From assembly GCA_013361065.1 (NCBI GenBank), contig JABWAK010000001.1, positions 4,547 through 68,546 of the forward strand: 64,000 nucleotides of DNA, read 5' to 3'. Source of the stretch: Bacteroidota bacterium. GTDB taxonomy: Bacteria > Bacteroidota > Ignavibacteria > UBA10030 > UBA8401. Below are positions 33,037-46,226 of this stretch, piece after piece. The stretch's first letter is position 1; every line of letters starts with the position of its first letter. Under the pieces are notes generated by a model that made no database searches, had not been told where the DNA came from, and saw nothing but the letters and a program-made list of their open reading frames with translations. The position numbers were made by a program, and so were the translations under genes.

Positions 33037-33546
33037 CTAGGCCGCTCCTTGTGCATGCTGACGCCGTTCGAGCAGTTTCTGGTACACTGCCATGATGATC
33101 CACGGGTGCTGCTCCAGCAGCGCCGACGGATGGTGGAATGCAACGATGATGCCGGTGCGCCAGATCGATTCGCGGCGGAACGACACCAGCCGCACCTTCT
33201 GTGCGGAGTAGAGTTCGTTCAGGTTCTTCCACATGCCGAACCGGTACTCCATCCGCTCGCCGTTCGGCAGATGGAAGAAGCCGCCTCCGGACCATCCCTC
33301 CGGCTCGTACGAAGCGAACGGCAGGTGGTCGTTCCCTTTTGTGATCTCCGTTCGCGCTTTCCAGATGCTGGGCCGGGTGATCTTCCAGCTGCCGCCGAAC
33401 CCTTCGATGATGACATCAGAGCTGTACCATTTCGGGGAGCGCATGGTCATCAGCACCGTCTCACCCGCCTGAAGGTGGTGCACCCCTTTCCAGAACGAGG
33501 GCTGCACCAGCTTCAGTTCCTGTGTTGTGTATTCTGCGAAGGTCAT
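33037..33546 (-). CDS. Hypothetical protein
   Basis: The ORF runs in the coding direction of the RHH/bPH genes, with its stop 15 nt upstream of the RHH start. Start chosen at MTFAEYTTQELK (33546); the upstream alternative is 33627. No motif recognised. Confidence 0.5.
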   Translation of the reverse strand: MTFAEYTTQELKLVQPSFWKGVHHLQAGETVLMTMRSPKWYSSDVIIEGFGGSWKITRPSIWKARTEITKGNDHLPFASYEPEGWSGGGFFHLPNGERMEYRFGMWKNLNELYSAQKVRLVSFRRESIWRTGIIVAFHHPSALLEQHPWIIMAVYQKLLERRQHAQGAA

Positions 33547-33654
33547 GGTCGCTGTTCTTATCCTGTCCGGCTGCGCCCCGCCGCCCGTAGTATCCGCGAC
33601 CTTTATGGTCGCGAAAGAGAATAACAAGCTGACGCAGCCGCTGTTCTTCCGGTA

Positions 33655-34530
33655 TTATTGATAGAGTGTTCCGGTGTTGATCACCGGTGTCGCTTCGTGG
33701 TCGGACACGAGGGCCACCATCAGGTTGTTCACCATGGTCGCCTTCTTGTCCTCATCCAGCTTCACGATCTTCTGTTCGGCAAGGATGCGCAGGGCGTCCT
33801 GCACCATGCCGACCGCGCCTTCCACGATCTTCTTGCGCGCGGCGATGATCGCCTGGGCCTGCTGCCGGCGCAGCATCGCTTGAGCGATCTCCTGCGCGTA
33901 TGCCAGATGGCTGATGCGGGCTTCGATGATCTCCACGCCGGCCACCTGCAGACGGGACTGCACCTGTGTGGTGAGCGCTTCTGCGATCTCCTGCGGATTG
34001 CCGCGCAGCGATGCCTTGTTCTCATCGTGCGAATCGTAGGAATATTCAGATGCCAGTGCACGGATGGCGGTCTCGCTCTGGATGGCAACGAACTGTTCGT
34101 AGTTCTCCACATCGAACAGCGCGCGCGCCGAATCGGTCACACGGTATACCACCACGGCGCCGATCTCGATCGGGTTGCCGTCCAGGTCGTTCACTTTGAT
34201 CCGCTCACTGTTGAAGTTGTGGATGCGGAGCGAGACGCGTTTCTTGGTGGTGAAGGGGTTGGTAAAATAGAACCCTGCGTCGCGGACCGAGCCGACGTAC
34301 TTACCGAACAGCACCAGGACGCGTGCTTCGTTCGGCTGCACGATGAAGAACCCGCCGGGAAGGATGAAGTTCGCGATCAGCATCGGAATGAACACGATGA
34401 GCATCCCCGGTTCTTCCATCCGGATCATCAGGACCAGCCAATAGACCGTAAAGACCGTCAGTGCGATGGTAAGGAACAGCATCAGATACCCGTTGGTGGA
34501 ACGTGCTTTTTTTTCAACAACCGTCTGCAT
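33655..34530 (-). CDS. SPFH/band-7 (slipin-like) membrane protein
   Basis: 291 aa with N-terminal TM helices, then [27 protein letters not shown]...RIHNF and an Ala/Gln-rich coiled coil ([26 protein letters not shown]). Confidence 0.9.
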
Positions 34531-34674: not shown

Positions 34675-37500
34675 TCATCTCACCAGGACCATCTTTTTGG
34701 TCGACATATAGGCTCCTGAGCGGAGGCGGTAGAGATAGAGACCGCTGGCGAACCGCGAGGCATCGAACGGGACGGAATAGCTGCCGGCATCCATCGTCCC
34801 CTCTGCAAGAACGGCGACCTCCCTCCCCAGCATATCGTACACTGCCAGCGTGACCGGTCCGCGGGTGCCGACCGAGAAACGGATGCGGGTGACCGGGTTG
34901 AACGGGTTGGGATAATTCTGATCAAGAGCGAACACGGCGGGCATATTGTTGTGCGACGGAACCGAGAGCGCCACATTGCTCAACCGGATCGTATCAAAGA
35001 TGCTGATCCCTTTCGCGGTCGTGAATGTAACGGTGTCTCCTTTGACGGGCAACAGTACCGGGCCCTCTCCCGGCAGCAGCAGGAGGTGCCACGTCAGGCG
35101 ATTGACGCCCAGGATGTTCTCTACACAATAGAACTCCAGTATTCCCGACGCTGGGGATTGGTAATAGAATGGCACCTTTTTTCCCGTGCTTATATTCACA
35201 ATGGTCATATCTACCGAATCCTGCGGCGTCACTATGCCAATGTACGGAGAAAGATCGGTCATACGGTCCCTTGGTCCGAAAATGATCCGGTAATCGGATG
35301 GGCGCGGATAACCATAGATCACGCTGCCATTCTGATGGGTGGTATTGACGGGGCTCATGTACCGCTTAAGATTGGCGTGTGCAGCGGCATTCCAGTGAGC
35401 AGAATCGAGCATCGTCGTCCGGTCGTTGACGGACATCCGAATCCCGTCGAAGACCGGGGATTCTGTGCCATTGATCAGCGGAACCGAAAGTAGGGTCGTG
35501 ATATTCTTCGTAGTATTACGGACGGTCATGCGCTTTTGACGGTCCGCAGAGGTGTCGTTGAACGAGATGATATACGTATCCGTCGTGGTCTGCCCTTTGT
35601 CCACCACGCCGAACGAGACCAGTGATGCCGCCGTTCCTGCGATCGTATGGATATTGGAGAGCGAAACGGGGCTTCTGGGGGTGTTCTTTACAAACGGAGC
35701 GGTGGAATCGGACATCGTGGTGTTCCCGTCTGTCGCCGTGATGCGGAGCCGCAGTGACGGTGAATTCGGAAGTTCGTTCAGCGCAATATCGATCATCGAT
35801 GTCTCTTTTGACGCGGGATGGACCATCTCCTTCCATCGGACCCACGCCCTTCCGGTGGAATAAGAAACGACGGTGGTCAATGTTTGCTGTTCCGGGTCAC
35901 CGAGCAATAGCTCCAACGGCAGCGATGAAGCGGTAAGCGGTGAGGAATGGATCGGTTCGGATATGATACGGACGAACGGTGAACCGTTCATGAGATTGTC
36001 CACAGTGATCGTTGCCGGGGACTGACGGAAGGAGACGATCGCGCCGGAGGGATCCCTGAAATAGATCCGGACCATCCCGAATGCACAATCATTCACGGAC
36101 GCGGTATTCCATGAGTATGCACCGTCATCCTCCGTTCCCTCGGCAACGGTGAGCCAATTCCTTCCGGCATCCGGACTGAAATAGATATCGACCGTTCCGC
36201 CGGCACTCAACGCCGGCCATTGGAGCGGCACGGTCCCGGTGAACGTTTGCGGTGTTGCAAATTGCGGCAACGCCGTCTGTGAAAGCAGCGCGGGAATGTT
36301 GAAACCGTTCGCCGACAGCAGCCGTGCCAGCCGGGTCTTCTGGATGATCCCTTGTGCGGTATGATCATAGATGAGCGCTGAGACGATCCTTGCTGTTCCT
36401 CCCGATACAATGGAGAAATATTGTGTCCCGAACATATAGTCGCCGTTCTCACCGGCTGTGGCGGTGGTATCGTTTACGATGGAGACGGGCACGCTGTAGA
36501 AGCCGGGCGACAACCGCGACCACAATTTCTCGTCATCCGCCAACGGGATCGTATGGGAAGGAGTGAAATAGTGGTATCCGCCGACAGCCCCATGTTGCTG
36601 CGAAATAAGGAATGCTTCTCCGAATTTTCCGACCCTTTCCTTCCAGAACGGATTCATGCCGACACTATTATCATAATCGCCGCTTACCACAACATTCTCT
36701 TTTTTATACAAGAAGGATACATCATCCTCGGCTTCATTGTAGAACTGTGCACCCGTTACACCAATGAGGGTTCCGGTAAGGTATCCGAAAACTGCCTTAG
36801 AATAGTCATAACTGCTTTCGTTCGTTATGTCGTAGACCCGGAAGAGCACATCGGCGAACAGCGGATGTTTGAATTGCAGATACCGAACGTCGACCCGAAT
36901 GCCATGTCCTTTCCTTGCTGTATCGGAAACCACCGGTCGGTACCGTACTCCCATCGCATTGTTCTCAGGAGAAGAGAATCGGTGGTCGTTGCGGTCATCC
37001 ATTTGATAATAAGATTCAAGATCTGCAATGACCTGCCCGTTCCCGTTCAGCCCGCGCCAGACGTTCCCCCACGACGAAGGCCAGGTGGAGGGATCGTTGC
37101 TCATGGCAACACTGTTGGTTCCTGCGGCAGCCGATGCTCCCACCGGCATCAGCGTGAAGTGCTGAATGTTATCCGGACCATAATCGTGTGAACTCGCCGG
37201 CCGCGCGACCGGCACGGTGATCACGGAGTGGATGGTATCCGGAGATCCATCATTGTTATGGTCTTTGATCGGCAGCTCCAGTCCGATCAGGATGCTGTTA
37301 TCGCCGATATAGCCATTGCTCGGAGCGAGCCACGCACCGCGCGGACGTGTATCGACCGGTTGTCCGATCACGCCCCAGTTGCCGAAGACGGTCATGATAT
37401 TGTTGCCGTTCATGACCGCAGAGCGATAAAATTCAGGACCGCTCTGCTGGGCGTGCGCAATTGTTGTAACGAGCAGGAGGATGAGCAGGATGTTCTTCAT
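34675..37500 (-). CDS. Large uncharacterised secreted protein with T9SS CTD
   Basis: 941 aa with signal peptide MKNILLILLLVTTIAHAQQ. The C-terminus is QNYPNPFNPVTRIRF...GLYLYRLRSGAYMSTKKMVLVR. No catalytic motif recognised. Confidence 0.8.
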   Translation of the reverse strand: MKNILLILLLVTTIAHAQQSGPEFYRSAVMNGNNIMTVFGNWGVIGQPVDTRPRGAWLAPSNGYIGDNSILIGLELPIKDHNNDGSPDTIHSVITVPVARPASSHDYGPDNIQHFTLMPVGASAAAGTNSVAMSNDPSTWPSSWGNVWRGLNGNGQVIADLESYYQMDDRNDHRFSSPENNAMGVRYRPVVSDTARKGHGIRVDVRYLQFKHPLFADVLFRVYDITNESSYDYSKAVFGYLTGTLIGVTGAQFYNEAEDDVSFLYKKENVVVSGDYDNSVGMNPFWKERVGKFGEAFLISQQHGAVGGYHYFTPSHTIPLADDEKLWSRLSPGFYSVPVSIVNDTTATAGENGDYMFGTQYFSIVSGGTARIVSALIYDHTAQGIIQKTRLARLLSANGFNIPALLSQTALPQFATPQTFTGTVPLQWPALSAGGTVDIYFSPDAGRNWLTVAEGTEDDGAYSWNTASVNDCAFGMVRIYFRDPSGAIVSFRQSPATITVDNLMNGSPFVRIISEPIHSSPLTASSLPLELLLGDPEQQTLTTVVSYSTGRAWVRWKEMVHPASKETSMIDIALNELPNSPSLRLRITATDGNTTMSDSTAPFVKNTPRSPVSLSNIHTIAGTAASLVSFGVVDKGQTTTDTYIISFNDTSADRQKRMTVRNTTKNITTLLSVPLINGTESPVFDGIRMSVNDRTTMLDSAHWNAAAHANLKRYMSPVNTTHQNGSVIYGYPRPSDYRIIFGPRDRMTDLSPYIGIVTPQDSVDMTIVNISTGKKVPFYYQSPASGILEFYCVENILGVNRLTWHLLLLPGEGPVLLPVKGDTVTFTTAKGISIFDTIRLSNVALSVPSHNNMPAVFALDQNYPNPFNPVTRIRFSVGTRGPVTLAVYDMLGREVAVLAEGTMDAGSYSVPFDASRFASGLYLYRLRSGAYMSTKKMVLVR

Positions 37501-37667
37501 GGATGCCTTTGTGGGATAGTTGCCGGGAGTGGTGAATCAATATACCGAACCATTGCCCCGTCAACAATCACGTGAATGCGTGTTGGCAGAAATGATGCGG
37601 TCTTTCTCACAGTACTTATATCCGTAACAACCTGGAGATGGAGGGGTCGGCGACCAATTAAAATGAA

Positions 37668-37697
37668 CATCCCCGATTCCTTGCGAAATCGGGGATG
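37668..37697 (-). terminator. Putative terminator after the 72-aa gene
   Basis: Perfect 11-bp stem (catccccgatt / aatcggggatg) with an 8-nt loop. On the minus strand it is followed by TTCATTTTAATT. Confidence 0.55.
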
Positions 37698-37735
37698 CGA
37701 GTAAACGGTCCGGTTTTATTTCTTCAGAGGCGGGG

Positions 37736-37954
37736 TCAGCGCTCCACAAAATCGTAGAACTGCACTTTGATGTCGAACTCCTGTCCGCTCTTGTAGTGCT
37801 GCTCGAACTTGCCCGGGAGCGGCTTCACCACTTTCACCGTGGCCCAGCATCCCTGCGCCTTCTGGATGGTCGCTTCGTACACCGGCACATCGTTCAGCAC
37901 GCAGGTGTACGTCTTGCCGATCTCCGGTCCGTTCTTTTGTTCGTGCGTATGCAT
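37736..37954 (-). CDS. Small hypothetical protein (72 aa)
   Basis: The ATG is preceded by GAGGAAA. G/C-rich third codon positions. Sequence MHTHEQKNGPEIGKTYTCVLNDVPVYEATIQKAQGCWATVKVVKPL.. looks beta-rich. Followed by a terminator hairpin. Confidence 0.55.
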   Translation of the reverse strand: MHTHEQKNGPEIGKTYTCVLNDVPVYEATIQKAQGCWATVKVVKPLPGKFEQHYKSGQEFDIKVQFYDFVER

Positions 37955-37975
37955 TCATTTCCTCATGATTTGTAG

Positions 37976-38055
37976 GGACGTCACAGTTTGTAAGGACGTC
38001 ACACTGTGTAGTGCGGGGGCGGCACAGTGTATAGGGACGTCACACTGTGACGTCC
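37976..38055. promoter_or_regulatory. Three GGACGTCACA direct repeats, the last forming a 10-bp-arm palindrome, with interlocking CACAGTG/CACTGTG inverted repeats
   Basis: GGACGTCACA occurs at 37976, 37994 and 38035. TGTGACGTCC at 38046-38055 completes the palindrome. cacagtg at 38023-38029 can pair with cactgtg at 38002-38008 or at 38043-38049. Confidence 0.5.
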
Positions 38056-38063
38056 TTACTCTG

Positions 38064-39278
38064 TTACGCCGCGGACGGCTTCTTCATCCGTCCGTACAGC
38101 AGCGCCGCGGCCAGGATCACCGCCAGGGCGATCAGACCGTACAGCAGCCAGTTGCTCGGTTTCACTTTTGCGTACCACAGCTGCATCTTGGTGTCGATGT
38201 CCGCCGTGTTGGCATCGGTGAACAGACCGCTCTCCTTCATCACCGGGACCCAGACCGGCTTCAGTTCGCCCGTCCAGATCTCGTTGAAGGCGCTGTACAC
38301 ATCGTACGGGTCCTGTTCGCTCTTGGCGCCGGCACCGGTGATCTGCTCGTCGATGTACTTGGCGAGGATGTTATGCACATTGTCCCCGCTGCCGATGGCC
38401 GGCACGGTGAGCTTCGCGGAGGTGAAGAGTCCGTTCAGCGAACGCCAGAACGCCTCGTCCACCTTGGCGCGCCACTCGGCGATCATCGTATCGATAGCCG
38501 GGATCTCGCGCGCTTTCTCCTTGTTGGAGAGGTAGGCGTTGCCGATGAGGTTCTTCACGCCGTTCCAGTTGGACTCGAACTTGCGCTGTTCGCCGTAGAG
38601 CTTCGCCACGTCCGAACCGGAGAGGAGTGTGGAAGAGAGGAACTCCATATTGTCCGCCGCCGCGCTCTTGATGTTGCTCAGCACGTTGCTCCGCTCGAGC
38701 TTCGCCTGCTGGTTCTTCTGCACATCGCCGGAGGGGGTGACGTTCTTGTCATACTGCATGAAGAGACTGTCCACCAGGGCGAAGATCGCCTTGTCCCGCT
38801 TGGCGATGTTATCCCGCAGGGTGTTGACGACCTTCTTCAGCGAATCACGTTCCGCGGTGGCCTGTTTCAATTGCGCCAGCAGCGCGGTGTTCTCGCCGGA
38901 GAGTTTGCTCACTTCGGCGGTGAGCGTCTCCACCTGCTGCTCCAGCGCGGCGATGCGCGCGGCGCTCTCGCCGATCGCCTTGATCTTCTGTTCGGAATAG
39001 ACGAACTGTGCCTTTAGCTTGTCGATGCTCGTATCGAAATCGTCCGGGAAGAGCGCGCCGTTCAGGAACTCGCGGTGCGGCTTGTACTCGTTCTCCAGCG
39101 CGATCACCGATTCGCCGACCGAAGCGATGGCCTCGGGCGTCTCGGCTTCGTTGATGGAACGGAGCAGCTGTTTGTACTGCTTCTCGAAATCGCGCTTCAC
39201 TTCGCTCTTGGTCCGCTCCTGTGCAGCGGCGGACGTGAACAGGAACGCGCATGCCAGTAGAATGATGGTCTGTTTCAT
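38064..39278 (-). CDS. Exported coiled-coil protein with C-terminal TM anchor (paralog A)
   Basis: Internal ATG at 39278 is preceded by AAGGAGGAAC. Has signal peptide MKQTIILLACAFLFTSAAAQE, a heptad-rich segment (LEQQVETLTAEVSKLSGENTALLAQLKQATAERDSLKK) and a C-terminal TM (WLLYGLIALAVILAAALLYGRMKK). Alignable with the next gene along its full length. Confidence 0.8.
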   Translation of the reverse strand: MKQTIILLACAFLFTSAAAQERTKSEVKRDFEKQYKQLLRSINEAETPEAIASVGESVIALENEYKPHREFLNGALFPDDFDTSIDKLKAQFVYSEQKIKAIGESAARIAALEQQVETLTAEVSKLSGENTALLAQLKQATAERDSLKKVVNTLRDNIAKRDKAIFALVDSLFMQYDKNVTPSGDVQKNQQAKLERSNVLSNIKSAAADNMEFLSSTLLSGSDVAKLYGEQRKFESNWNGVKNLIGNAYLSNKEKAREIPAIDTMIAEWRAKVDEAFWRSLNGLFTSAKLTVPAIGSGDNVHNILAKYIDEQITGAGAKSEQDPYDVYSAFNEIWTGELKPVWVPVMKESGLFTDANTADIDTKMQLWYAKVKPSNWLLYGLIALAVILAAALLYGRMKKPSAA

Positions 39279-39349
39279 CTGTTCCTCCTTAGTGAACAAC
39301 TGTACCGCCGCCCGCACAGTGTGCGTCCGGCGGCGGTGAACGTGCTCTA

Positions 39350-40543
39350 TTATGCCGTGCGCTTGCGCGTGCCGAGGTAGACCCCGGCCAGCACCGCGAT
39401 CACCAGCGCGCCGATCAGGATGTAGGTGAGCGTGCTGTCCTCGATCGGCTTCATGCCGGCGGACCAGAGTTTCGTCCGGGCATCGATCTCGTTGAGCTGC
39501 TCCTCGGTGAACATGCCGTGACGCATCATCACGGGGATCCACGACGGTTTCAGCTTGCTTCCCCAGGTCTTGTAGGCGAACGCTTCGAACATGGCGCTCT
39601 GCTCGGCCGGCGTACGCTGGGCGGTGTTCCGCGATTCCTCTTCAATGAACTTCAGGATGTTGGCGTACATCTCCTCGCCGTTGTTGAACGGTGCGATCGG
39701 GAGCTTCTCGGCCGCGAAGACCTCGTTGACCCCTTTCCAGAACACCCCGTCCGTGAGCGTGCGCCAGTTGGCGATCAGCCCGGCGATCTCCGCCACTTCC
39801 TTCCCCTGCTGCGACGCGGGAACGTACGCTTTGGAGAGCTTCTGCCCCACGCCGCTCCAGGATGACTCGAACCGGCGCTGCTCGTTGAGCAGCTGCGGGA
39901 TCTGTTGCGGCGAGAAGCTGGCGGAGGAGAGGAACAGGATGTTGTCGTTCACCGAACGGCGGATGCTCGCCACGACGTTCTTCTTCTCCAGCACGGAGAG
40001 CTTCTTCATGTCGGTGCCGGAGAGCTGGTCCGTATCGTACTTCACGAACAGACTGTCCACCAGCGCGAAGACCGCTTCGTCCCGCTTCTGGATCTCGCTC
40101 TGCAGCATGGCGATGGTCTTCTTCAGCGTGGCGAGTTCCGCCTGCGCCTTGGCCAGCTGCGAACGGAGCGAGGCGTTCTCTTCCTTCAGGGACTGCACCT
40201 GACCGGTGAGGGAGGCGATCTCCTTCTCCAGCTGTGATGCGCGGATCTTCTTCTCGGCCAGCTCCTTGGACTTCTTGAGCCGGTCGATCAGTCCGTCATA
40301 CCCGTCAGGGAAGACCGCCTTGTTTAGGAACTCCTGATGCGGTTTGAATTCGTTCTCGAACGCCGTCACGTCGGCAACGAGTTTCGTCAGCGCTTCTTCG
40401 TTCTCGGCGCTGTTCAGGTTCTTGGTGAGCAGTACGAAGCGGGTCTCGAAATCCTTCTTGATCTCGGACTGCGTCCGTTCCTGAGCATTCGCGGTGCCGA
40501 GCAGCAGGAACAGACCAACAAGCAGAGTGATGCGTGTTCTCAT
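39350..40543 (-). CDS. Exported coiled-coil protein with C-terminal TM anchor (paralog B)
   Basis: Has signal peptide MRTRITLLVGLFLLLGTANAQE, a coiled coil and a C-terminal TM (LTYILIGALVIAVLAGVYLGTRKR). Shares these blocks with paralog A: AQERT.SE.K.DFE, ENE(Y/F)KPH.EFLN, KRD.A.FALVDSLF, EQR.FES.W, LKP.W.PVM. The ATG overlaps the upstream stop (ATGA). Confidence 0.8.
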   Translation of the reverse strand: MRTRITLLVGLFLLLGTANAQERTQSEIKKDFETRFVLLTKNLNSAENEEALTKLVADVTAFENEFKPHQEFLNKAVFPDGYDGLIDRLKKSKELAEKKIRASQLEKEIASLTGQVQSLKEENASLRSQLAKAQAELATLKKTIAMLQSEIQKRDEAVFALVDSLFVKYDTDQLSGTDMKKLSVLEKKNVVASIRRSVNDNILFLSSASFSPQQIPQLLNEQRRFESSWSGVGQKLSKAYVPASQQGKEVAEIAGLIANWRTLTDGVFWKGVNEVFAAEKLPIAPFNNGEEMYANILKFIEEESRNTAQRTPAEQSAMFEAFAYKTWGSKLKPSWIPVMMRHGMFTEEQLNEIDARTKLWSAGMKPIEDSTLTYILIGALVIAVLAGVYLGTRKRTA

Positions 40544-41010
40544 TTCTTACCTCCCAGAGGTTGGGCTGCCCCTTTGGTCAGCTGGAATTTCTCTTTACCG
40601 TTCCACAGTTCGATGTAGGAACCTTTCTGGTCGAATTTCGGGTCGTCCATCTGTTTCTCGGGCGAGATGGAGAGGGTCGACGCCACGGAGAGGGCGCCGT
40701 CACCCTGAGCCAGCACGTACACGTTCTTGAACTTCTTGCCGGTCACATAATAGAAGCCCGCTTTGTCGCGGATGAGACGCAATTCCTTCGTCCCTTTCGC
40801 GGCGGCAGAATCGGCGCCGAACTCCTGCGCCAGGAGGGCGCTGACGGTGAAGGCGACGCTGTAGCGTTTCGCGTCGACCATACCTTTGCCGTTGACATCG
40901 ACGATCTCTTCCGCTGCCCAGGAGAAATCGGCCGGCTGCAGCTGCAGGGATGAGCATCCGACGATGGTGAGCGATGCGGTGATCATGATGATGAGCAGTG
41001 TCTTCTTCAT
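40540..41010 (-). CDS. Hypothetical lipoprotein
   Basis: 156 aa. MKKTLLIIMITASLTIVGCSS (lipobox), preceded by AAGGAGAGG. Starts 27 nt after the gyrA stop. Confidence 0.75.
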   Translation of the reverse strand: MKKTLLIIMITASLTIVGCSSLQLQPADFSWAAEEIVDVNGKGMVDAKRYSVAFTVSALLAQEFGADSAAAKGTKELRLIRDKAGFYYVTGKKFKNVYVLAQGDGALSVASTLSISPEKQMDDPKFDQKGSYIELWNGKEKFQLTKGAAQPLGGKK

Positions 41011-41037
41011 GGTTCCTCTCCTTCTATGATGGAATGG

Positions 41038-43821
41038 TTATTTCTTCTTTTTCTTCTTCGCTTTCGGTGCCGGTTTGGGTGCTGCTTTCGGCTTCGGCGC
41101 CGGAGTGCTCTTTTTGGCCGCCGGTTTCTGTTTCGGCGCCGGTGCTTTCTTCGCCGGTGCAGACTTCACCTTCTCCTCCGCTTTTTCTTTCCCTTTGACC
41201 GGAGCGGTGCTCTTTCCCGAACCTTTTGTTGCTGCAGAAGGTTCCGGTGCGGGCGCCGGGTCATTCTTCGTCTTCTTCAGGGCTTTTTTTTTACCGCCGA
41301 AGAGGTCCTCTGCAATGGTGTCGTCCGATCCCTGCGGTGCCGGTGCAGCGGCGGCGCGCGCCTTATCGGCCGCCTCCAGCTGCTTCTCCTCCTCGTCCTC
41401 CGAGGTGACGATGGCGACCGCCGTAACGGTATCGTTCGCGCCGAGACGGATGAGCCGCACGCCGGAGGTGTTCCGTCCGGAGACGCGGATATCCTCCGCA
41501 CGCTGGCGGATGATCATGCCGCTGCTGGAGACGACGACGATGTCGTCCGTATCCTGCACCTCTTTGATGGCGATCATCTTGCCGGTCTTGTCGTTCGCTT
41601 TCAGCGTTGCGATCCCTTTGCCGCCGCGGTGGCTCACACGGTAATCGCCCAGGTCCGAGCGCTTGCCGAAGCCGTTCTCGGTGGCGACGAGGATGGTGGT
41701 CTTGGTCCGCTTCAGCGAGACGGCGCCGATGACCTTGTCCCCTTTCTCCAGTTTGATGGCGCGGACGCCCGATGCGCTGCGGCCCATGGCGCGGACCTCG
41801 CTCTCCGGGAACCGGATGGCGATCCCTTCGTGCGTGCCGATGACGAGCTCGTGCGTGCCGTCGGTCAGTTTCACGTCGCGCAGCAGGTCCTTGCCGTCCA
41901 GACTGATGGCGCCGATACCGCTCCGGCGGGGATTGCTGAACTCCATCAGCGACGTCTTCTTCATCTGTCCCTCTTCGGTGACCATGAAGACGAACTGGTT
42001 CTCTGTGAATTCTTTGACGCTCAGGAAGGCCGTAATGTTCTCCTCGGCCTCCTTCGCGATCAGGTTGGTGATGGCCTTCCCCTTGGAGGCGCGGCCGCCT
42101 TCGGGGACCTCGAACACCTTCAGCCAGTAGCATTTCCCCTTGTCCGTGAAGAAGAGGATATAATTGTGCGTGCTGGCAATGAACATATGCTCGACGAAAT
42201 CGTCCTCGCGGGATGCCGCTCCGGTGACCCCTTTGCCGCCGCGGGACTGGCGGCGGTAGCCGCTCACCGGGAAACGCTTGATATAGCCGCCGTGTGAGAT
42301 GGTGATCACCACTTCCTCTTCCGCGATCATATCCTCGATCTTGAACTCGGTCTGCTTCATCACGATCTCGGTGCGGCGCGGATCGGCGAACTTCTCGCGG
42401 ATGGCGAGGAGTTCCTCTTTGATGAGCTGCAGCTGGAGCTGCTTGCTGCCCAGGATCGCCTTCAGGCGGTTGATCAGCTTGATCAGGTCGCGGTACTCAT
42501 CCTCGATCTTCTTGCGTTCCAGTCCGGTCAGCCGCTGCAGGCGCATGTCCAGGATAGCCTGCGCCTGGATCTCGGAGAGCTTGAACTTCTTCATCAGGCC
42601 GATCTTGGCGGTCTCGGTGTCCTTGGACGCCTTGATGAGCTTGATAATGGCATCGATGTTGTCCAGCGCGATGATGTAGCCTTCCAGGATGTGCGCGCGT
42701 TTCTCGGCGGCATCCAGGTCGAACTTGGTGCGGCGGACCACCACGTCGTTGCGGTGTTCGATGAAGTGATGGATCATATCCTTCAGCTGCAGCACCTGCG
42801 GACGGCCGTCCACGAGCGCCAGCATGATGATACCGAAGGTGGTCTGCATCTGCGTGTGCTTGTAGAGGTTGTTCAGCACCACGCTCGCATTGGCATCGCG
42901 TTTCAGGTCGACCACGATGCGCATGCCGTCGCGGTCCGACTCGTCGTTGATGCCGGAGATATCGTCGATCTTCTTGTCGCGCACCAGCTCGGCGATCTTC
43001 TCGATGAGCGATGCCTTGTTCACCTGGTACGGGATCTCGGAGATGATGATGCTCTGCCGGTCGTTCTTCGCCGTCTCGATGGTCGCCTTGGCGCGGATGG
43101 TGATCTTGCCGCGGCCGGTCTTGTACGCCTCCTTCACCCCGTCGTACCCGTAGATGATGCCGCCGGTCGGGAAGTCGGGCGCCTTGATGTGCTTCATCAG
43201 CTTGTCGTTGTCGATGCTGCGGTCACCGATCATCGCCACCACGCCGTCGATCACCTCGCCGAGGTTGTGCGGCGGGATGTTCGTGGTCATACCGACCGCG
43301 ATACCGCTCGCGCCGTTCACCAGCAGGTTCGGGATGGCGGCCGGGAGCACCTTCGGCTCCAGCAGCGTATCGTCGAAGTTCGGCGAGAAGTCGACCGTGT
43401 TCTTCTCGATGTCGCGGAGCATCTCCTCCGCCACGCGGGTCATGCGGACCTCGGTATACCGCATCGCGGCGGCGGAATCACCGTCCACCGACCCGAAGTT
43501 CCCCTGGCCGTCCACCAGCATGTAGCGGAGCGAGAAGTCCTGCGCCATGCGGACGATGGTGTCGTACACCGATGCGTCGCCGTGCGGATGGTACTTACCG
43601 AGTACCTCTCCGACCACGCGTGCGCTCTTCTTGTACGGTTTGTTCGGCATCAGGCTCAGTTCGTTCATGCCGTACAGCACGCGCCGGTGGACCGGCTTCA
43701 GGCCGTCCCGGACATCCGGGAGGGCGCGGGCGACGATGACCGACATCGAGTAATCGATGTACGAGCCTTTCATCTCTTCTTCAATATCGACGGGGAGTAT
43801 GCGTTCGTTGGATGTGGCCAT
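41038..43821 (-). CDS. gyrA: DNA gyrase subunit A with extended Lys/Ala/Pro-rich C-terminal tail
   Basis: [18 protein letters not shown], the active-site AAMRYTEVR, and six beta-pinwheel CTD blades. Ends with a ~120-aa tail (...[37 protein letters not shown]). Confidence 0.95.
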
Positions 43822-43862: not shown

Positions 43863-45932
<2,070 letters not shown>

Positions 45933-46226
45933 TTATCGGAATTTGATGTCGGTGATGCTGGCGGAGTTCGTCCGCTCGTGGATCTTCTCCAGCAGCTCCC
46001 GTTTACGGAAGGTCAGTTCCGAGCGCCACGGCGCGTTGTTCACGGCTACGATGAGCACGCCGTTCTGGATCCGTTCCGGCTGCGCCACCTTCGCCACCTG
46101 CGGACCGACCACTTCGTTCCACACGTCGAAGATCTTGTACTGTTCCACCTGCTTCTCGATGCCGAGGCTCTGCACGAGCTGCTTCAGCGCGTCGCCGATG
46201 GATTGCATGTTCTCTTTGCGGATCAT
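45933..46226 (-). CDS. DUF721 (DciA-like) protein
   Basis: Internal ATG gives ~97 aa (MIRKENMQSIGDALKQLVQSLGIEKQVEQYKIFDVWNEVVGPQVAKV...GVLIVAVNNAPWRSELTFRKRELLEKI), the classic DUF721 pattern. It sits in the conserved slot between recF and gyrB. Confidence 0.75.
   Translation of the reverse strand: MIRKENMQSIGDALKQLVQSLGIEKQVEQYKIFDVWNEVVGPQVAKVAQPERIQNGVLIVAVNNAPWRSELTFRKRELLEKIHERTNSASITDIKFR

Follow-up and report, generated by a model that had tools for sequence, protein, structure and literature searches.

The closest described counterparts of the genes considered here are exported proteins with a periplasmic coiled coil or a long helical body. Braun's lipoprotein, Lpp (PDB 1eq7; NF011925), connects layers of the envelope as a coiled coil in the periplasm and sets their spacing by its length, with the lipid anchor and the coiled coil combined in one 58-residue trimeric chain whose C-terminal lysine is bound to peptidoglycan. 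In the TolA-Pal/CpoB system, a long helical protein anchored in the inner membrane reaches an outer-membrane lipoprotein: the membrane anchor of TolA is N-terminal, its energy comes from TolQR, and a globular domain at its C-terminus makes the contacts with Pal and TolB. In the TIGR04211 family (SH3_and_anchor, Escherichia coli YgiM type), a signal peptide is followed by a coiled-coil periplasmic body, a single C-terminal transmembrane (TM) helix and a short tail. Here we describe a gene pair coding for a lipoprotein and an exported coiled-coil protein, found in a 64,000-nucleotide stretch of contig JABWAK010000001.1 (positions 4,547 to 68,546; assembly GCA_013361065.1) from a Bacteroidota bacterium of the Ignavibacteria. 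This whole stretch is called the window below, and positions are counted within it.

To our knowledge, the group formed by Bacteroidota, Ignavibacteria and Balneolales is without Lpp. More generally, the fixed spacing and mechanical coupling of the two membranes in diderms outside the Proteobacteria are largely unexplained, and the pair offers a compact candidate for such a role. Its strengths in this respect are that it consists of two orphan families with perfect co-occurrence, that its stalk is predicted to be rigid and changes in length by whole heptads only, and that it is present in cultured hosts. Even if the tether reading developed below is wrong, two new protein families are defined for databases in which their members are entered as hypothetical or are mislabelled.

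The conserved unit: a lipoprotein gene and one coiled-coil gene

In the window the module is represented by three genes, which lie on the minus strand like all genes discussed here, gyrA included. Their translations delimit a lipoprotein gene of 156 aa (40540-41010), ccA (39350-40543), which encodes an exported protein of 397 aa with a coiled coil and a TM anchor at its C-terminus, and ccB (38064-39278), a 404-aa paralog of ccA identified by its translation together with its paralogy. The original prediction, made from the letters of the DNA, had outlined this arrangement, and its coordinates were borne out. The lipoprotein gene begins 27 nt past gyrA, the gap between the gyrA stop codon (TAA, 41038-41040) and the ATG at 41010 holding AAGGAGAGG; its stop overlaps the ccA start in an ATGA (in ...AAATGAG...), which couples the two genes; and ccB follows after a spacer of 71 nt (39279-39349) that contains a hairpin rich in GC and, as the Shine-Dalgarno sequence of ccB, AAGGAGGAA. 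The 404-aa ATG frame of ccB that is preceded by this Shine-Dalgarno sequence aligns with all homologs, and the 492-aa GTG frame in the open reading frame list is over-extended. The proposed paralogy of the two large proteins is likewise supported, as they are 38% identical in an alignment of 391 residues (E 3e-95), and by this comparison they are paralogs far beyond chance.

Searches among 1.84 billion representative sequences recovered the coiled-coil family as 157 clusters at 50% identity (E < 1e-30), with nearly all members 400-460 aa long and matched end to end. The hosts include many uncultured Ignavibacteria and "Bacteroidota" metagenome-assembled genomes as well as four cultured lineages, Ignavibacterium album (IALB_0199), Balneola, Gracilimonas and Cyclonatronum (C. 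proteinivorum, CYPRO_1611). In every complete locus examined (about 90, loci cut by contig ends being excluded), the coiled-coil gene is immediately preceded by the lipoprotein gene, including all 10 relatives of one survey and all 19 loci of another. This adjacency extends to Cyclonatronum, where the lipoprotein homolog directly upstream of the coiled-coil gene is only 28% identical (E 2e-22). Further, in a sample of 201 genomes of the class, with the coiled-coil protein counted on strong matches, the latter was detected in 44 genomes, all of them among the 45 in which the lipoprotein was detected. In the single genome with the lipoprotein alone, a divergent 458-aa coiled-coil gene abuts the lipoprotein gene, bringing the co-occurrence to 45 of 45 positive genomes. 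Unlinked second copies, where they occur (G137, G146, G207, G215, G102, G120, G193), have always been duplicated as a lipoprotein and coiled-coil pair. There is no third conserved partner gene, with the next most frequent neighbour occurring in 13 of 34 loci. The conserved unit in Ignavibacteria and Balneolales is hence the lipoprotein plus one coiled-coil protein. This modifies the earlier proposal of an uncharacterised envelope module of three: the exported module is indeed conserved beyond this genome, but the trio is confined to the window's genus and the unit is the pair.

The lipoprotein gene, ccA and ccB are real and expressed: in an activated-sludge metatranscriptome, contigs 100% identical to the window extend over all three as well as over the neighbouring gyrA and gyrB and a 72-aa gene downstream of ccB.

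Searches for known families and folds

That neither of the proteins belongs to a named family, as had been suspected, was upheld by every type of search performed, with Pfam, NCBIfam, PADLOC, PHROGs, PDB profiles and Foldseek all lacking a confident match. For ccA and ccB, Pfam and NCBIfam (with hits inspected to E 1) returned only sub-threshold coiled-coil matches, and for the lipoprotein no match. Ten distant members of the coiled-coil family gave nothing consistent against Pfam; when the C-terminal domain alone was scanned member by member, no Pfam family matched more than one member; and among 23 lipoprotein homologs scanned singly, the most frequent Pfam matches were non-significant and reached at most four of the 23. 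Profiles of the lipoprotein, of the whole coiled-coil family and of the latter's C-terminal domain retrieved nothing from the PDB beyond generic coiled coils. Structural comparisons with Foldseek against the PDB were likewise not significant, be it for the AlphaFold model of ccA (best E 0.075, generic helical repeats) or that of the lipoprotein (best E 0.14, weak matches resembling propeller blades). PADLOC and PHROGs gave nothing other than coiled-coil noise, and a defence or phage module was ruled out on this basis.

In public databases the coiled-coil homologs are labelled as hypothetical proteins, with some bearing names derived from the coiled coil (FtsB, SMC/chromosome segregation ATPase, regulator of replication initiation timing). 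No paper was found when the literature was searched by locus tag or accession (CYPRO_1611, IALB_0199, IALB_0200, WP_014559070, I0AG04). As judged from these comparisons, the lipoprotein and the coiled-coil protein are two previously undescribed protein families.

Anatomy of the coiled-coil protein

Topology and motifs were counted in 135 representatives of the coiled-coil family and 109 lipoprotein homologs. Of the former, 130 begin with a signal-like region, 134 have a 19-residue window of TM-grade hydrophobicity at the C-terminal end, and 127 have at least two lysines or arginines just past this window, while none of the 135 has an internal TM segment. The layout first read from the window, namely a periplasmic body tethered by a C-terminal TM helix and followed by basic residues, is accordingly the predicted topology of the family at large. 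The signal peptide of ccA (residues 1-20; 40484-40543) ends in TANA/QERT, where the slash marks the predicted cut by signal peptidase I (SPI), and the corresponding sites are ANA/QERT in ccA and AAA/QERT in ccB. The AQE that had been noticed at the end of both signal peptides thus corresponds to a glutamine at position +1 of the SPI site. Such a glutamine directly after the predicted cleavage site conforms in ccA and ccB to the Q-rule of Bacteroidetes, by which SPI substrates carry Gln at +1 (PMC5837995). Across the family, 131 of the 135 representatives have a Gln at most five residues upstream of a near-invariant SD[YF]E block.

The AlphaFold model of ccA is all-alpha (pLDDT 76.7, rising to about 90 in the C-terminal bundle) and presents, in order, a helical hairpin (residues 25-76), a long helix (81-170), a linker of low model quality, a bundle of helices (190-364) and the TM helix (about 371-391). 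The Trp-rich bundle (39452-39976; pLDDT 80-95) would lie next to the membrane, with the TM helix beginning only a few residues past it. Conserved tryptophans in the bundle are W229, W260, W269, W327, W335 and W360 (ccA numbering), and Pro366, between the bundle and the membrane helix, is invariant in a 30-sequence alignment. The TM helix of ccA (residues 371-391; 39371-39433) scores 2.44 in a 19-residue Kyte-Doolittle window, coincides with a model helix at 369-393 and is followed by TRKRTA; that of ccB is at 38091-38150. The predicted cytoplasmic tail consists of only 3-10 basic residues, is variable and has no domain.

The coiled coil of roughly 60 residues that had been proposed for both proteins resolves, by heptad analysis across the family, into a leucine zipper of nine heptads at residues 102-165 of ccA (40049-40240), with its counterpart in ccB at 38763-38954. 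In ccA, the d positions are Leu at 105, 112, 119, 126, 133, 140, 147 and 161, and the a positions are Ile, Val or Leu plus Asn123. For seven of the nine heptads, the d position is hydrophobic in at least 93% of the sequences; this does not hold for 105 (64%) or for 154, which is an Arg. The latter forms, with Asp155, a near-invariant pair at d-e (R in 119 and D in 129 of the 135 representatives), and Asn occupies a123 in 73 of them. Beta-branched residues at a, Leu at d and an Asn at one a position favour parallel dimers under the general rules of coiled coils. The heptads of the family, continuous with Leu at d and with beta-branched residues or Asn at a, match the motif of a parallel dimeric zipper. 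On account of the beta-branched a positions, the Leu d positions and the buried Asn, we infer that the coiled-coil protein probably forms a parallel, in-register dimer, which would place both TM helices in one membrane.

The length of this stalk is quantised across the family. Measured from the near-invariant P79 to R154, it comes to 83 residues in 84 representatives and to 76, 90, 97 or 104 in 28 more (together 112 of 135). These lengths differ by steps of exactly seven, whereas the neighbouring segments vary continuously. In the window, ccB keeps the ancestral stalk length, with the family mode of 83, and ccA, at 75, is shorter by 8 residues.

The lipoprotein and its likely docking end

The lipoprotein has the lipobox I-V-G-C19, with the Cys codon at 40954-40956. 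A lipobox of the form [LVI][ASTVI][GAS]C ends the signal peptide in 107 of the 109 homologs, and the Cys is invariant in the alignment. About six residues past it lies a near-invariant motif, L.PADFSW, which is of low pLDDT and unstructured in the AlphaFold model (pLDDT 83.7 and pTM 0.73 overall), and behind this motif is a compact beta domain with 11 strands. A near-invariant motif in an otherwise flexible tether is typical of a docking segment, and L.PADFSW might serve as such.

A short variant of the pair bears on which part of the coiled-coil protein would be contacted. Three genomes of the genus g37 (L109 1004-2229; L110 995-2337; L111 993-2194) have an extra lipoprotein copy that overlaps by 4 nt with a gene of 179-186 aa, the product of which comprises only the signal peptide, the hairpin and the zipper, with bundle and TM helix absent. 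What the lipoprotein remains paired with is thus the N-terminal half of the coiled-coil protein, which in the predicted topology of the full-length protein is the end far from the inner membrane.

A putative envelope strut and alternative readings

The reading that we favour, with less than even confidence, is that the pair forms a structural complex of the envelope, in which a dimeric zipper stalk rooted in the inner membrane is capped by the lipoprotein and probably bridges towards the outer membrane. The coiled-coil protein would be exported by Sec and cut by SPI before Gln21, and the lipoprotein would be cleaved and lipidated at Cys19. The C-terminal TM helix would then anchor the coiled-coil protein in the inner membrane, leaving only the 3-10 basic residues in the cytoplasm, with the Trp-rich bundle seated on the outer face of this membrane. 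From the bundle, the parallel, in-register zipper of nine heptads would rise and lift the N-terminal hairpin and the conserved mature N-terminus approximately 12-18 nm into the periplasm, an estimate that takes 0.15 nm per residue for the roughly 63 zipper residues, the helix ahead of them and the bundle. Produced in 1:1 coupling with the coiled-coil protein, the lipoprotein may dock via its PADFSW tether to this distal N-terminal part, and its anchor would probably lie in the outer membrane, on the side of the inner leaflet. It is the combination of distal docking with a reach of 12-18 nm that favours an outer-membrane lipoprotein, and this is the weakest step, lipoprotein sorting being unpredictable. 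The pair would hence act as a strut or tether between the two membranes, with a role in structure and spacing as opposed to signalling. In the window's genus, two stalk species (of 83 and 75 residues), or a heterodimer of them, would share one lipoprotein.

Several observations weigh against such a strut. Lipoprotein sorting rules, including the +2 rule, fail in Bacteroidetes (PMC5837995), and with sorting unpredictable in the phylum the lipoprotein could be one of the inner membrane. The monomer model of ccA has a pTM of 0.47, making the arrangement of its domains uncertain, and the electrostatics at e and g do not separate a homodimer from a heterodimer (attractive/repulsive g-e' charges of 6/2 for AA, 4/0 for BB and 6/1 for AB). 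No enzyme, transporter or peptidoglycan-binding domain in the pair hints at a tethered object. Moreover, the module is missing from about three quarters of the genomes in the 201-genome sample of the class, so any general architectural role must be dispensable or filled by something else. Lastly, DNA carry-over is possible among the RNA contigs that attest expression.

The principal alternative, which we consider possible but rather doubtful, places the complex at the face of the inner membrane. Here, an inner-membrane lipoprotein would bind the Trp-rich bundle, and the zipper would only dimerise the protein or reach the cell wall, with the whole scaffolding or regulating an enzyme of envelope biogenesis, much as in EnvC-FtsEX or LpoA/B-PBP. 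The spacing of merely six or so residues between the lipidated Cys and the conserved motif means that the lipoprotein must act near its own membrane, and its sorting allows this to be the inner one; the bundle, moreover, is the best-conserved and best-modelled part of the coiled-coil protein. However, the short g37 variant keeps its lipoprotein partner despite having neither bundle nor TM helix, which speaks against this reading. Nor is there an enzyme gene among the conserved neighbours, given the low frequency of even the commonest of them, and no catalytic or peptidoglycan-binding domain was detected with Pfam or NCBIfam.

An envelope-stress sensor, in which an outer-membrane lipoprotein reports to a receiver in the inner membrane as in RcsF-IgaA or NlpE-CpxA, is improbable. 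Its layout, a lipoprotein plus an inner-membrane-anchored periplasmic protein with a stalk of defined length, does fit the pair. However, the cytoplasmic tail is a few variable basic residues devoid of a domain, and there is no kinase or regulator among the conserved neighbours; it is this short, variable tail together with the lack of linked regulators that disfavours a signalling device. More improbable still is that the C-terminal helix and basic tail constitute a cleavable sorting signal of the exosortase, rhombosortase or sortase type, from which the mature protein would be moved to another envelope layer. The tripartite appearance of this region, with Pro366, the TM helix and a basic cluster in succession, is reminiscent of such signals, but no CTERM-type NCBIfam model matches at E up to 1, no sortase-like gene is found among the conserved neighbours, and the single Pro is all there is by way of a signature motif.

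Genomic setting, duplication and transcription signals

Upstream of the module in the window are gyrA (41038-43821; 1202 bits against NCBIfam TIGR01063), gyrB (43863-45878) and, just upstream of the latter, a gene for a 97-aa DciA-family protein (45933-46226; PF05258, 87.6 bits). Both gyrA and gyrB score far above their NCBIfam equivalog cut-offs, and together the genes from dciA through gyrB, gyrA and the lipoprotein gene to ccA and ccB form a co-directional, tightly packed string. The original prediction had attached meaning to this placement after gyrA and near the origin, and to a tiny gene nearby, neither of which survives comparison with relatives. An upstream gyrB-gyrA is found only in the window's own family and on one further contig (L064), and the linkage to gyrA is absent from I. 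album, from the other Ignavibacteria families and from the Balneolales (Balneolaceae, Cyclonatronum). The adjacency is therefore the synteny of one family and says nothing about function. Similarly, the tiny gene (72 aa; 37736-37954), for which no Pfam, PADLOC or PHROGs family was found, accompanies the gyrA-linked arrangement only: in a tblastn survey it occurs (at 46-100% identity) directly after the coiled-coil gene or genes in gyrA-linked loci and nowhere else. A function related to gyrase, replication or the origin, although suggested by the tight string, the 27-nt gap and the lack of any terminator-like site found on the coding strand before the end of the 72-aa gene, can be put aside as the least probable reading of all, as it is contradicted by this distribution and by the export signals that all three proteins carry.

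The tandem of ccA and ccB is restricted to the window's genus, in which both copies are intact in 16 of 19 genomes, the second is split in one (G010), and two genomes are cut by contig ends. In G010 (L036 7225-8591), ccB matches in two pieces with a gap, so a disruption or an insertion is possible. In a maximum-likelihood tree, the ccB clade is sister to a clade of single-copy genes from sister genera, within which ccA is nested on a long stem (0.7). This topology indicates that the duplication is older than the genus; by the same tree, the sister genera retained the A-type copy and ccA underwent fast evolution afterwards.

With regard to transcription, the hairpin in the ccA-ccB spacer is stable by RNA folding (-30.7 kcal/mol, z -3.95) and has no U-run, and the first terminator-like hairpin on the coding strand is at 37667-37698, after the 72-aa gene. 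In the metatranscriptomes no RNA contig spans the junction of gyrA and the lipoprotein gene, with the proviso that the end of a contig need not be that of a transcript. Over the lipoprotein gene, the contigs of two RNA runs end at 41011-41019, whereas DNA contigs of the same sample run through. This stop could reflect a transcript 5' end or a processing site inside the gyrA tail, or else merely an assembly break at low-complexity sequence. The 3' tail of gyrA (41011-41600) has almost no RNA contig depth in two metatranscriptomes. The Bacteroidetes-type -7 motif TAnnTTTG is absent from the coding strand between 37.4 and 46.8 kb, and a scan for sigma-70 promoters performed no better than on shuffled sequences.

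Several further features surround the module. The spacer between ccB and the 72-aa gene (37955-38063) contains three GGACGTCACA repeats and a palindrome, and its RNA fold is very stable (-43.9 kcal/mol, z -6.2); the core GTGACGTC in this spacer resembles a protein-binding half-site. Further downstream, at 33061-34530, an SPFH/Band-7 gene (291 aa) and a gene of about 165 aa from an unrecognised family form a conserved unit. Between the 72-aa gene and the SPFH gene, the window encodes a protein of 941 aa that carries a C-terminal sorting domain of type IX secretion (34675-37500). This protein is found at the same place in a few relatives within the genus; as most relatives have the SPFH gene directly after the 72-aa gene, it looks like an insertion. 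In I. album (L104 9899-11290), the SPFH unit is immediately upstream of the lipoprotein and coiled-coil pair on the same strand, with identities of 69% and 28% for its two genes, and it may have a loose ancestral linkage to the pair.

The Balneolaceae loci (L091-L100) show a different fixed string, consisting of a divergent deaminase, a phosphoribosyltransferase (Pribosyltran; hpt), the lipoprotein, the coiled-coil protein and an exported histidine-phosphatase-like protein (RHAEK...GHSNT), with a BatA/MoxR-type cluster on the opposite strand. The hpt gene upstream and the histidine phosphatase downstream are treated here as the synteny of that lineage.

Comparison with known systems

Of the characterised proteins with which a coiled coil of this kind might be confused, the murein hydrolase activators EnvC and PcsB match in the coiled coil alone (12.6-19.2 bits against cut-offs of 270-450); their C-terminal LytM or CHAP domain is absent, and the C-terminal profile of the coiled-coil family has no Pfam or PDB relative. 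The zippers of GCN4 and other bZIP proteins share with the family the Leu at d, the beta-branched a positions and a conserved Asn at one a, and bZIP_1 gives a sub-threshold match at ccB residues 114-150. This resemblance is one of structural motif only, as the coiled-coil proteins have no basic DNA-binding region and are exported.

In the order of its parts, the coiled-coil protein is closest to TIGR04211, with the same succession of signal peptide, coiled-coil periplasmic body, single C-terminal TM helix and short tail. However, ccA reaches only 18.4 bits against a cut-off of 65 with this model, over residues 99-154, which is the coiled coil itself. Further, the SH3 domain is absent, with no SH3 family matching in Pfam or NCBIfam at E up to 1 and the model being all-alpha, and the proteins of the window are twice as long, adding the N-terminal hairpin, the Trp-rich bundle and an obligate lipoprotein partner.

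The other two comparisons are analogies of function only. Like TolA, the coiled-coil protein would be a long helical protein of the inner membrane directed to a lipoprotein of the outer membrane, but its polarity is reversed, the anchor being C-terminal, and no motor genes are linked to it; with respect to CpoB, TolA_bind_tri (PF16331) stays at 15 bits, below its cut-off of 30.1. In the case of Lpp, the lipid anchor is here on a separate, beta-rich protein, and the coiled-coil chain has heptads of the dimer type and ends in a TM helix; it also has an AxA/Q site for SPI in place of a Cys lipobox. Matches to Lpp (1eq7, NF011925) are weak and confined to the coiled coil, with NF011925 reaching 11 bits, far below its cut-off of 108. 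If the strut reading were to be extended along these lines, the pair could be viewed as an "upside-down" counterpart of Braun's lipoprotein in Ignavibacteria and Balneolales, a speculative proposal that we deem unlikely in its full form. Under it, a dimeric zipper strut rooted in the inner membrane would carry a dedicated outer-membrane lipoprotein as its cap, and periplasmic width would be set, or gauged, by its heptad-quantised length (76, 83, 90, 97 or 104 residues), with struts of 83 and 75 residues sharing one cap in the window's genus.

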